A program made the position numbers. From Fervidicoccaceae archaeon (GTDB lineage: Archaea > Thermoproteota > Thermoprotei_A > Sulfolobales > Fervidicoccaceae): DNA of 64,000 bases. The stretch is taken from positions 372,001 to 436,000 of the forward strand of contig JAVYOA010000009.1 in NCBI GenBank assembly GCA_038734945.1, given 5' to 3'. Below are positions 55,125 through 58,100 of this stretch, piece after piece. How positions within the stretch are numbered: the stretch's first letter is position 1; each line of letters begins with the position of its first letter.

Positions 55125-58100
55125 TGAAAATATATCCTACTCCTCTCTTTGTTTCATCTAAACATGTATCCTATCAATTTCCATTAATTTATAAACCGCA
55201 TCATTTAAAGGGTGTTCTAGCATAGAGATTAATGAAATGACAGGTGTGATGGGATGCCTTCTAGAGGAAAAAACAATTCTCCTACATATAAAATCGAGAA
55301 CATTGTAGCCACTGTAAGCATAGATCAAAAACTTGATCTTCACGAAATTGAGCGTAGAGTGCCTCGCGTAGAGTACAATCCAGACCAATTTCCTGGTTTA
55401 GTATTCAGACTAGAGAGGCCAAAGATAACAGCACTGATATTCAAGTCTGGAAAAATGGTTGTGACAGGCTCCAAGAGCACAGCAGAGCTTATAAATTCAG
55501 TGAAGAGAATCATAAAGACCTTTGCTAACCATGGAATAAACATCTCCCATCAAGCACAAGTTCAAATACAGAATATTGTAGCCTCAGGTAATCTTGGGGT
55601 TGGAGTTAACCTGGAAGAAGCAGCCTACAAGCTCGAAAACATAATGTATGAACCAGAGCAGTTTCCTGGGCTCATCTATAGAATGACCAATCCATACGTC
55701 GTTCTCCTGATCTTCAGCAGTGGAAAAATGGTTATAACTGGAGCCAAAAGGGAAGAAGAAGTTGAGATGGCTGTTAGGAACATCTATAAAACGCTCTCCG
55801 ATTTGGATTGTTTAGTTGAAGATATAGAAGGGGAAAAAACAGAGGAGTTCTTTTAAAGATCTGAATCGCAAATTATTTTAACTTAAATCCTTTAGAAAGA
55901 GCTTAGAGGGCCCGTGGCTCAGCCTGGTAGAGCGGCGGAGGCCGGAGCCCGATACCCCTTTCCCCTTTTTCACAATGGCCACCTTGGGAACTAAAAAATT
56001 GCTTAATCCCTTCAATGGCTAAGTCATGAGCGAAAATTATATAATCTGGGTAGCTTATCCAGATCCATCGGGGTATCGGGCGAAGTCCGCCGAGGCTCTT
56101 AACCCGTAGGTCCCGGGTTCAAATCCCGGCGGGCCCGCCACAGAAATTGAGAGAAGGGCTCTTGGGGGATCATCCCCCAATCTGTTTTCAGCTTACCAAT
56201 GAGTAAATGAGATCTTCAAGAGCCTCAAAATCTTGAGACCTCCTGTTTCTAGGCCTAGGCAGATCCACCTTGATCTCCTTTGAGATTCTGCTCGGCCTTG
56301 GAGTTAGTATAACTATTCTATCTGCTAGAAATATGGCCTCGTCTACAGAGTGAGTTACCATTACTATCGCTTTTAGAGGTGTAATTCCGGACAACCAAAT
56401 GTCCAATATTTCAGCCCTCAGCGTCTCAGCAGTTAAGGGATCTAGGTTTGAAAAGGGCTCATCCATTAGGAGAATTTCTGGCTGGATGGCAAGTGCTCTA
56501 GCAAAGTTTACTCTCTGTCTCATCCCCCCACTTAGCTCGTGGGGATAAAGATATTCAGAACCAGATAGTCCAACTAGAGAAATATACCTGCGGGCCGTTT
56601 CAGTAGCTCTTTCTCTATCCAGCCCCAAGTTCTTGAGAGGAAGTGCGACATTTTCTAGAACATTCATCCAAGGAAGAAGAGAGGGGAACTGAAAGACGAA
56701 ACCCATTTTTGGCATTCTCCCCTCATTATATATTATCTCTCCACCACTGTAATTCTCCACTCCTGCTATGATTCTGAGCAATGTTGACTTTCCACAACCG
56801 GAAGGACCAAGAATTACAAGAAATTCTTTCTTGATATCCATCGTGATATCATCGATTACCTTTACTTTACCGTTCTCCGAAACGTACTCTTTTGAAATTT
56901 TTCTCAGAGATATCAATATTTGTTCCATGTTTATCATACCTCAGTCAACAACATGGTACTTCTTTCTTCCATATGAATACAGCCATGCCCAAAATGTCCT
57001 GTTGAAAACAACTATAAAAAACGTCAATGTCAGTACATAGATCGCTAGAGACGTCGTATCTCCGGATACGGTAGATGAAGAAATTAGGTAGCCTATTCCA
57101 AAGAAAGAGATGACTTGTGTTCCCAAATAAGCGTATTCGGCAACGATAGTCGCATTCCATGCACCCCCCCAGGCAGAAGACATTCCAGACAGAACGTAGG
57201 GAGTTAGCATAGGAACAAAGATTCTAAAGAACTTATAGCGCCCTTTTATTCTATAAATTTTGGCCATTTCCATAATATTTTTTTCCATCGGCCCTATCCC
57301 AGTAAGTGCTATATTGAAGAAAATGTACCAAATTGCTCCCTGAAATATTATGAACAGAGAAACAAGCACTGGAGGAAAACCTCTTAGGATGAGAGCTACA
57401 AAAATAGGCCACCAGAGAGAAGCAGGAACTGATGAGAGGAATTCACCTGAGAGAATGAAGAGCTTTCGAAACAGCTTTTTTCTCTCATAAAGAAGATATG
57501 AGAGAAACATCACAGATATAGTTCCGATGCCAAGAACAATAGCCACCCTTAATAGTGAGATGGAAACCCCTTCAAGCGCGCTGATCAAAACCAAGCTAAT
57601 TTTCTCAGAGCTCATCGAAAATGTAATTTTGCCGGATATTCTCTGCATGAAGAAAACTGCGGCAATAAGAAGGATAGAGATGAGAGATATTTTCAACCAG
57701 TTTCTGACTTTTCTTGATAATGCATATTCTTTTCTTGAGATCGCAGCCAATCTTATTATCAAAGCATCGCTTACTGAGCTCCAGAATTTCGTAGAGCTCC
57801 TCCAAAAAATTCTGAATGGAGCTCCTATCATAGGCATTACATTTTCTTCTGAAGAAGTTTGAGTTACTATTGAATAAAAAGGATTCCATATAAATACATA
57901 TACTCCTATTGAGAGAATCACTATTGAGAGAATGCCAAGGGCTATTTGCTCAGCATTACCTGCCTCCAACCCAAGCTGGATATATGTGCCAATTCCCTCA
58001 AGCATATAGTTAGTTGAACCCATAGTTATTATTTCAGAGGATACAAGGAAGAAAAGTCCCCCAGCCCACGAGATTATTGAATTCTTCGCTATCGCAGGGA

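Follow-up and report, generated by a model that had tools for sequence, protein, structure and literature searches.

The window analysed, a 64,000-nt stretch of the genome of a hot-spring Fervidicoccaceae archaeon (G000) whose positions are used as coordinates throughout, contains the sole tRNA-Lys(CUU) gene of this organism, which reads AAG and is encoded in two adjacent pieces on the same strand. The 5' exon (55908-55938, + strand) is unique in the genome and provides 31 nt, tRNA positions 1-30 plus 17a. The 3' exon (56095-56137, + strand) provides the 43 nt of positions 31-73 and is followed by an encoded CCA (56138-56140, + strand). When the exons are joined in a script, ARAGORN recognises a tRNA-Lys(ctt) whose cloverleaf is complete (7/4/5/5-bp stems), in agreement with the preliminary description, which had placed halves 1-30 and 31-73 on one strand with their junction at 30/31; ViennaRNA does not fold the mature sequence into a cloverleaf. 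The gap between the exons (55939-56094) measures 156 nt and not the 160 or 165 nt first given.

That the gene is missed by the tables also holds. ARAGORN does not call it in the window and finds 33 tRNAs in the whole genome, none of them for lysine, whilst the Rfam tRNA model at its gathering score detects only a tRNA-Val in the window. There is no second Lys(CUU) gene in this genome, which is 99.95% complete, and the only other lysine tRNA is a continuous tRNA-Lys(UUU) at G000:C9:43078-43151. AAG is the major lysine codon (57.5% of Lys codons and 34.9 per 1000 codons in 610 long open frames). Because standard tRNA finders overlook such a gene, annotations of genomes like this one are left without a tRNA for the main lysine codon.

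Each exon has its own upstream promoter-like sequence. A position-specific scoring matrix (PSSM) was built from the regions upstream of 34 tRNA genes in G000 and scored over 2.68 million genome positions. For the 5' half, the BRE/TATA-like promoter GCAAATTATTTTAACT (55868-55883, + strand) scores 9.54 bits, in the top 0.034% of positions, and ends 24 nt upstream of the mature 5' end. Within the spacer, a putative BRE/TATA for the 3' half, GCGAAAATTATATAATCT (56030-56047, + strand), scores 9.12 bits, in the top 0.044%. By chance, a stretch of 156 nt would contain about 0.07 sites with this score, and the element outscores only nine of the 34 tRNA promoters, an in-sample comparison. It includes AAAATTATATAA at 56033-56044, which has TTATATAA as its part 56037-56044 and lies 25 nt before the leader GGGG at 56070; the preliminary description had given 24 nt for the TATA box. 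The 5' half's promoter and the internal one share the reading GC(G)AAA(A)TTAT, with no more likeness by eye; that the internal promoter arose when the gene's own was duplicated in tandem was considered and set aside.

The same TATA box had been said to precede the free-standing 3' half in the sister species of the genus, G001 and G002, and this is borne out by the alignment. All 12 columns of the BRE/TATA core CGAAAATTATAT (56031-56042) are invariant across G000, G001 and G002, as against none of the 15 columns upstream and nine of the 27 downstream, and the spacing to the leader is 25, 26 and 25 nt, respectively. PyrG identity among the three is only 79-81%. In G001 and G002 the putative BRE/TATA must drive the free-standing 3' half. 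Invariance of the core amid fully diverged neighbours argues for selection on this element in the G000 lineage too.

Candidate terminators follow both halves. A T-rich run, TTTCCCCTTTTT (55959-55970, + strand), follows the 5' trailer as first described and includes T5 at 55966-55970; it is a candidate terminator of the 5' half. Runs of T5-T6 follow the trailer in four of the five split genes of the family (G000, G002, G004 and G006, but not G001), and runs of more than three T are found in none of the nine introns that ARAGORN calls in G000. However, only 5 of 34 tRNA genes in G000 have T5 within 30 nt downstream, and T5 is a weak terminator signal in this genome. After the 3' half, a consensus scan picks out a terminator-like hairpin TTGGGGGATCATCCCCCAA followed by TCTGTTTTC (56162-56190, + strand), a pattern match only. 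The metatranscriptome X12, from the same study as one of the DNA runs, gave 0 reads on the locus in the roughly 3/100 of the run that was read.

Between the T-rich run and the internal BRE/TATA the spacer is unconserved (55971-56029): aligned to each of the sister junctions, it never scores higher than shuffled controls. Introns of tRNA-Trp can contain a small RNA. A small RNA within the present spacer was considered and rejected, as no C or D box is visible by eye and an Rfam search of 55000-57000 with E values up to 10 gave no match in the spacer and only partial T-arm matches.

The spacer ends next to the exons can pair with each other. The 5' trailer (55939-55958, + strand) begins with A55939, the third base of a 5' bulge, followed by GG 55940-55941 in helix h', a 5-nt loop strand and the duplex strand GCCCGATACCCC (55947-55958, + strand). 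The predicted leader of the 3' half (56067-56094, + strand), with a start near A56067 that we infer from the TATA spacing, contains the partner strand GGGGTATCGGGC (56070-56081, + strand); on the same strand, CC 56087-56088 lies in h', GCCG 56089-56092 in the central helix and AG 56093-56094 in the 3' bulge. The 11-bp duplex CCCGATACCCC/GGGGTATCGGG noted in the preliminary description is indeed in the minimum free energy (MFE) fold (z -2.70; one of 200 shuffles folds equally well), and a further G-C pair lengthens it to 12 bp. The 12-bp duplex alone contributes -25.2 kcal/mol and is present in the MFE of cis and two-strand folds at 37, 70-80 and 85 C. The trailer is kept with one change in G001 and G002, and in G001 the last pair of the duplex is changed from G-C to G-U.

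A hand-built hBHBh' structure has standard pairs only, with two bulges of 3 nt each and a central helix of 4 bp, and cutting it after the second base of each bulge gives exactly 30/31. However, at 37 C the ViennaRNA MFE puts the junction in a different register, with -75.4 kcal/mol as compared with -61.5, so a canonical bulge-helix-bulge (BHB) at 30/31 is a possible structure, compatible with the sequence, rather than the one that the folding model predicts. Enzymes for processing are encoded: the genome has two PF01974 (EndA) paralogues (103.4 and 44.3 bits), which we take to form a broad-specificity (alpha-beta)2 splicing endonuclease, and one RtcB (583.8 bits). The abstract of PMC5829648 supports the assignment of two paralogues to the (alpha-beta)2 broad-specificity type.

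The state of this gene varies amongst relatives. Within the family it is continuous in G005, has a 26-nt intron in G003 and exists as dispersed halves in G004 and G006; the continuous, intron-containing and dispersed states listed in the preliminary description thus all exist, but under other genome labels than it had used. In G007, which is 61% complete, a search with one 27-nt 3'-exon pattern at up to two mismatches gave no match. One family, whose cultured genus is Fervidicoccus, keeps the full series: a continuous gene, a 26-nt intron, adjacent halves, and halves 9 kb and, in genomes of the G004 type, 88 kb apart. Across the order, the gaps of the 30 interrupted loci examined are 13-26 nt in 21 and 156 nt in G000 only, with the halves dispersed in the remaining eight. 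Family f3 has short cis introns of 13-23 nt at 30/31 in 20 of 20 loci; in family f11 the signature of an interrupted gene was found in 4 of 39 sampled genomes, and all four loci are without a 5' exon within 1.5 kb.

Two inversions of about 9 kb, each with a breakpoint in the spacer, had been proposed to separate the halves in the sister species. Both are real, although the labels of the two genomes are swapped relative to that proposal. It is G002 in which the left block of about 9 kb carrying the 5' half (46949-55938) is inverted, leaving the halves divergent and 9.16 kb apart, and G001 in which the right 9.6-kb block carrying the 3' half (56095-65651) is inverted. The G001 junction at the 5' half recurs in an independent metagenome contig of 176.9 kb (L050), 96.1% identical over the 1225-nt locus. 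A single clean inversion does not account for G002: next to its distal breakpoint lies a C/D-box sRNA gene that has been flipped in place, so that at least one further small event is needed. A match of 55960-56032 to the sister junctions in a permissive alignment did no better than shuffled controls under stricter scoring, and its homology to them was rejected; the o26/o27 intergenic region likewise gave no alignment to the G001 junctions above shuffled controls. The breakpoints are thus placed only as between 55959 and 56031.

The preliminary description took the adjacent arrangement to be ancestral, and the synteny agrees. The o09-sRNA-o10 junction is common to G000, G001 and G004, the o26/o27 junction to G000, G002 and G004, and both the adjacency of the 3' half to o19 and that of TBP to the 5' half to all four genomes. 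Since the junctions destroyed by each inversion persist in G000, in the other sister and in the outgroup G004, adjacency of the halves as the ancestral state of the genus is supported, on an argument from three genomes of the genus and one outgroup in a region that often rearranges. In G004, o19 and the 3' half lie beside o26-o27, which suggests a third inversion.

Our main reading, to which we give a probability of roughly two in three, is that the sole tRNA-Lys(CUU) gene consists of two adjacent same-strand transcription units and that the internal promoter preceded the dispersal of the halves by inversion. Two units had been put forward already, and the score of the internal promoter and the invariance of its 12 core columns point the same way. 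Transcription from 55868-55883 would yield the 5' half with a trailer of about 20 nt, probably ending at the T-rich run 55959-55970. A second transcript, from the BRE/TATA at 56030-56047 and starting near 56067, would carry a leader of about 28 nt and the 3' half with its CCA. Trailer and leader would pair over 12 bp and thereby set up a canonical BHB, in which positions 21-24 would pair with 32-35 to form h, and C25-C28 with the leader GCCG to form the central helix. The bulges, GG|A and AG|G, would be cut by the two-subunit splicing endonuclease, and RtcB would ligate position 30 to 31, completing the trans-splicing that we infer. A read-through precursor of 233 nt could adopt the same fold and be spliced in cis, and this may occur in part as well.

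The strongest alternative, which we nonetheless consider unlikely, is a single gene with a 156-nt cis-spliced intron at 30/31, in which T5 is read through, the intron is closed by the duplex and the TATA has marginal activity or none in this species. As the halves are close together, on the same strand and in the right order, a single precursor with such an intron would mature correctly too, and the 233-nt RNA does fold with the duplex in its MFE. Also in its favour are the short cis introns exactly at 30/31 in 21 of the 30 loci examined in the order, the poor showing of T5 runs as tRNA terminators in G000 and a low-level read-through product detected by RT-PCR in Aeropyrum pernix (PMC3218864). 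However, as the preliminary description pointed out, the spacer exceeds the known range of archaeal tRNA introns, 11-129 nt (PMC3218864). Its interior, unlike that of an ordinary cis intron, holds both a BRE/TATA and T5, whereas the introns called in G000 have no comparable T runs. The 12-base core of the BRE/TATA is also invariant in G000 although neighbouring columns have diverged, and none of the other gaps in the order is intermediate between 13-26 nt and dispersal.

Decay of an unused gene, with AAG read by wobble by the continuous tRNA-Lys(UUU) noted above, is very improbable: the cloverleaf is flawless, AAG is the more abundant lysine codon, the BHB and duplex are retained and neither exon differs among five species, from three genera (G000, G001, G002, G004 and G006). 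A misjoining of the halves at a tRNA repeat during assembly is scarcely credible, since, although the T arm is exactly repeated in other tRNA genes and contigs of public runs end at 56112-56121, one 4040-nt contig of run X1 matches 55200-56121 with zero differences, and thus runs from the 5' half through the whole spacer into the 3' exon, of which it covers the first 27 nt, and the flanking adjacencies of both halves recur in G001, G002 and G004. The X1 contig is not independent, as X1 may be the source sample, and among the pieces listed for runs X4 and X5 none spans the spacer.

If the gene is indeed two transcription units, its history may be read from its relatives. A long intervening sequence at 30/31 would have gained a terminator and a promoter, after which a break in the stretch of about 70 nt that separates the two would have done no harm. 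Inversions breaking in this terminator-promoter stretch would have been harmless because the 3' half already had its own promoter, and would have left dispersed halves in two sister species; two or more inversions within the genus, each an independent event, would have broken there. Judged from synteny, the internal promoter would be older than the dispersal. We lean slightly towards regarding the locus as a living example of the state that gives rise to dispersed split tRNA genes, by a route of 'promoter first, rearrangement second'.

The age of split tRNA genes has been debated for two decades, mostly from single genomes: they could be relics of ancient times, or they could have derived recently from intron-containing genes. 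Here an adjacent state, two dispersed states and an outgroup occur within one genus and family, so that the order of events can be read from synteny, and this order supports a late origin of split tRNA genes by rearrangement. The 30/31 interruption of tRNA-Lys(CUU) has also yielded split genes in a second family, that of Staphylothermus, and the present case adds a third lineage in which this tRNA is split at that site.

Halves that lie side by side on one strand, with a promoter in the gap, are already known in Aeropyrum pernix for its tRNA-Asp(GUC) (Chan, Cozen, Lowe 2011, PMC3218864), and the tRNA-Lys(CUU) of G000 is a further example of this arrangement, from Fervidicoccaceae. In A. pernix, as in G000, the halves are in the right order, the 'intron' (about 121 nt) has a BRE/TATA that precedes its 3' end by 20-25 nt, and a canonical hBHBh' is followed by a G/C-rich stem. 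The A. pernix gene differs in encoding tRNA-Asp, in being joined at 37/38 and in belonging to a different family. Its two halves, with no 199-nt precursor, were shown by northern blots (PMC3218864), whereas separate halves in G000 are predicted from sequence; on the other hand, G000 has close relatives with halves dispersed by mapped inversions, and A. pernix has none. In Thermosphaera aggregans the halves of tRNA-Asp(GUC) are also adjacent (PMC3218864), but they lie convergently on opposite strands, so that cis transcription is impossible there.

For the tRNA itself, the closest counterparts are the split tRNA-Lys(CUU) genes of Staphylothermus marinus and S. hellenicus (PMC3218864), which share the 30/31 junction, mature parts of 31 and 43 nt and a leader ending in GCCGAG; the halves in G027 lie at the coordinates given for S. 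hellenicus in Table 1 of that paper. Unlike G000, these members of family f11 have halves 4.8 kb apart, a 13-bp duplex of different sequence and A9 rather than G9 in the 5' exon. The tRNA-Lys(CUU) of Nanoarchaeum equitans is also joined at 30/31 (Table 1, PMC3218864), but it belongs to a distant phylum, and its halves lie on opposite strands with about 70 kb between them. The short cis introns of tRNA-Lys(CUU) in the order share the 30/31 site, mostly begin with A and, in G003 and f3, all end in GCCGAG or GCCGTG; in contrast to the spacer of G000, they are 6-12 times shorter and have no long duplex, promoter or T run.

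The tRNA-Lys(CUU) gene is present on the + strand as two adjacent halves: a 5′ part, to position 30, of 31 nt at 55908-55938 (GGGCCCG TG GCTC AGCCTGGTA GAGC G GCGG), and a 3′ part, positions 31-73 plus CCA, at 56095-56140 (G CTCTTAA CCCGT AGGTC CCGGG TTCAAAT CCCGG CGGGCCC G CCA). The split into adjacent halves claimed in the preliminary description can be read directly, although its figure of ‘about 165’ or ‘160’ nt for the spacer is slightly too high, the interval (55939-56094, +) being 156 nt. When the exons are joined in a script, ARAGORN returns a tRNA-Lys(ctt) with a flawless cloverleaf. 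The tables do miss the gene: ARAGORN calls tRNA-Val alone in the window, as does Rfam at gathering score, with nothing but partial T-arm matches (E up to 10) at the locus, and no Lys tRNA is found among the 33 ARAGORN tRNA calls for the genome overall (G000; 1.34 Mb, 99.95% complete). BLAST of the halves against this genome finds each in single copy, together with a continuous paralogue, 93% identical, at C9:43078-43151 that reads Lys(UUU). Since AAG accounts for 57.5% of lysine codons (610 long open frames) and there is no second Lys(CUU) gene, this gene is needed and is the sole one of its kind.

So short a list of tRNA genes at such completeness implies that some 10 or more are hidden by non-canonical introns or splits. 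Outside the window, 1 kb downstream of tRNA-Lys(UUU), lies a tRNA-like gene (C9:44116-44313, +) that is interrupted by about 130 nt and contains CTCCAGT, its 5′ part and T arm/acceptor resembling tRNA-Lys. Given the CTCCAGT, it may be a tRNA-Trp whose long intron perhaps bears an sRNA; inspection by eye showed neither a TATA nor a T run. A GGGCTC(C/T) motif, here at 56156-56161 (+), stands 10-20 nt past the 3′ end of tRNA-Lys genes, recurring at loci L003, L004, L006, L014, L023, L026 and L029, with both CUU and UUU genes, in several families of the order and independently of the gene downstream.

The two halves could be brought together by pairing within the spacer. Twelve pairs join the trailer strand GCCCGATACCCC (55947-55958) to the leader strand GGGGTATCGGGC (56070-56081); they are present in the minimum free energy structure of the 247-nt RNA (z -2.70) and also when the two strands are folded as separate molecules at 37, 70 and 85 °C. 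Inward of this duplex a canonical bulge-helix-bulge motif with its flanking helices (hBHBh′) can be written by hand, with all pairs standard in a script check: helix h pairs tRNA positions 21-24 with 32-35, the central 4-bp helix pairs C25 G26 G27 C28 with GCCG at 56089-56092, the 3-nt bulges are G29 G30/A55939 and A56093 G56094/G31, and helix h′ pairs GG (55940-55941) with CC (56087-56088), followed outward by a 5×5 loop and then the 12-bp duplex. By the rule for tRNA introns the splicing cut would fall after the second bulge base, which puts the exon ends exactly at 30/31. ViennaRNA favours another register of the junction (-75.4 versus -61.5 kcal/mol at 37 °C), so that the sequence permits the canonical motif but energy does not predict it. 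Two splicing-endonuclease paralogues and RtcB are encoded in the genome.

The spacer also carries putative signals for transcription. Directly 3′ of the trailer strand lies TTTCCCCTTTTT (55959-55970), and GCGAAAATTATATAA follows at 56030-56044, with 25 nt from its TATA to the GGGG of the leader. A 16-column promoter matrix trained on the sequences preceding 34 G000 tRNA genes has the consensus GAAAAG.TTTTAAA, its sites ending a median of 24 nt (mostly 22-32, range 16-44) upstream of the mature 5′ end. By this matrix the internal site scores 9.12 bits, which ranks it within the top 0.044% of the 2.68 million positions scored, and chance would put about 0.07 such sites in 156 nt; for the 5′ half, the promoter at 55868-55883 reaches 9.54 bits. 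In this in-sample comparison the two outscore 9 and 10, respectively, of the 34 tRNA promoters. The observation made in the preliminary description is real. Less weight attaches to the T run: T5 occurs within 30 nt downstream of only 5/34 tRNA genes against about 2 expected. In its favour, none of the nine ARAGORN-called introns has a T run longer than 3. A palindrome, ATCTGGGTA GCT TATCCAGAT (56044-56064, +), lies downstream of the internal TATA and ahead of the predicted start; it forms a 9-pair hairpin in folds and is not conserved in the sister species G001 or G002.

In both sisters the 3′ half is free-standing, so its promoter must work there. Alignment of the three species leaves the core CGAAAATTATAT invariant in 12/12 columns, compared with 0/15 columns upstream and 9/27 between TATA and leader, and TATA-leader spacing is 25, 26 and 25 nt (G000, G001, G002). 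These species are far apart (79-81% PyrG identity) and their unconstrained intergenic sequence is randomised, so a box kept in G000 argues for selection there too. This conserved box is the strongest argument for the earlier reading of two adjacent transcription units, which it supports, and the halves would probably be transcribed separately in G000.

Synteny, from tblastn of 37 G000 open frames (o-numbers) against the sister contigs, bears out two different inversions, each with a breakpoint in the spacer. G002 is collinear over o00-o09, has the left block from o10 to the TBP gene and 5′ half (46949-55938) inverted and, beginning with the 3′ half, is collinear again. In G001, contig C77 reads PyrG, TBP, 5′ half, then inverted o26 and o25, and C116 reads o28, o27, 3′ half, o19, the orders predicted from inversion of the right block, 56095-65651. 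An independent 176.9-kb metagenome contig has the C77 junction too, its identity across the 1225-nt locus being 96.1%. The junction o09-C/D sRNA-o10 is common to G000, G001 and the outgroup G004 (sister of the genus in the PyrG tree, 100/99), and o26-o27 to G000, G002 and G004, whilst the TBP-5′ half and 3′ half-o19 adjacencies occur in all four. The order in G000, adjacent halves included, is therefore ancestral for the genus, as had been proposed, and a separate inversion, one of its breakpoints lying somewhere within 55959-56031, sets each sister apart. The sRNA gene beside the distal breakpoint of G002 is flipped in place, implying at least one more small event. The order in G004 (o19, 3′ half, o26, o27) is that which a third inversion, from the 3′ half to o25, would give, blurred by further rearrangements; the region rearranges often within the family.

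The candidate C/D-box sRNA gene (46916-46975, -) lies between genes for a Vps4-like AAA ATPase (o09) and a DUF1464 protein (o10). Its boxes, by eye, are GATGATGA ... GTGAG ... GATGAG ... CTGAG, and Rfam matches to archaeal C/D families are weak (sR55, 20.3 bits, E 0.0087, below gathering). The gene is conserved across G001, G002 and G004. It shares about 30 nt with the o10 frame as drawn, and o10 may therefore end elsewhere.

Among the eight species of Fervidicoccaceae compared (G000-G007), the gene is found in every state from continuous to dispersed. It is continuous in G005 and has a 26-nt intron at 30/31 in G003; the halves are 156 nt apart in G000, 9.16 kb apart and divergent in G002, 88 kb apart in G004 and on two contigs in G001 and in G006. 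In G007 (61% complete), where the 3′ exon only was searched, its pattern had no match. The exons are identical, with G9, in the five interrupted non-intron genes, whose leaders all end GCCGAG; G003 and G005 have A9. The branching order of G003, G005 and G006 at the base of the family is unresolved in the PyrG tree. Of 251 genomes sampled across the order, 44 carry the signature GCCGNG/GCTCTTAACCCG (by family, G000 counted: f1 6/8, f3 33/39, f8 1/8, f11 4/39). Thirty of the 44 loci were fetched and inspected: the 5′ exon is 13-26 nt upstream in 21, 156 nt upstream in one (G000) and absent within 1.5 kb in eight, making G000 the sole intermediate among the 30.

The TBP gene (55254-55856, +) adjoins tRNA-Lys(CUU) or its 5′ half, in varying orientation, in G000-G005 and G027, and lies 4.6 kb away in G006; this proximity is an old linkage that has outlasted many rearrangements. 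In family f11 (L069-L072), G159 and G246, of other genera, carry a free-standing 3′ half with the related leader GGGGG.C.AGCCGGTAGCCGAG, besides two genomes at the published Staphylothermus coordinates.

Split tRNAs are listed in the available text of one review for N. equitans, A. pernix, S. marinus, T. aggregans and C. maquilingensis only (PMC4033280), and no paper among those listed by full-text searches pairs Fervidicoccus with split-tRNA terms, subscription journals and GtRNAdb lying beyond the scope of those searches. In the available text of PMC3293823, a mobile element rather than inversion is the proposed agent of dispersal. Adjacent halves are an arrangement already known: as described in the accessible part of PMC3218864, an A. 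pernix split tRNA combines BRE/TATA in its 121-nt spacer with a canonical BHB and a stem of 14 bp. Its halves, but no 199-nt precursor, are seen on northern blots, RT-PCR gives a faint read-through product, and the authors regard the gene as a possible evolutionary intermediate. The same source places the split of Staphylothermus tRNA-Lys(CUU) at 30/31, with halves 4.5-4.8 kb apart, and the G027 and G081 loci fit the coordinates in its Table 1. What is new here is an additional case and an unusually clear comparative series. The G000 locus has the layout of A. pernix and the tRNA of Staphylothermus and N. equitans, in a third lineage; it thus joins the two observations.
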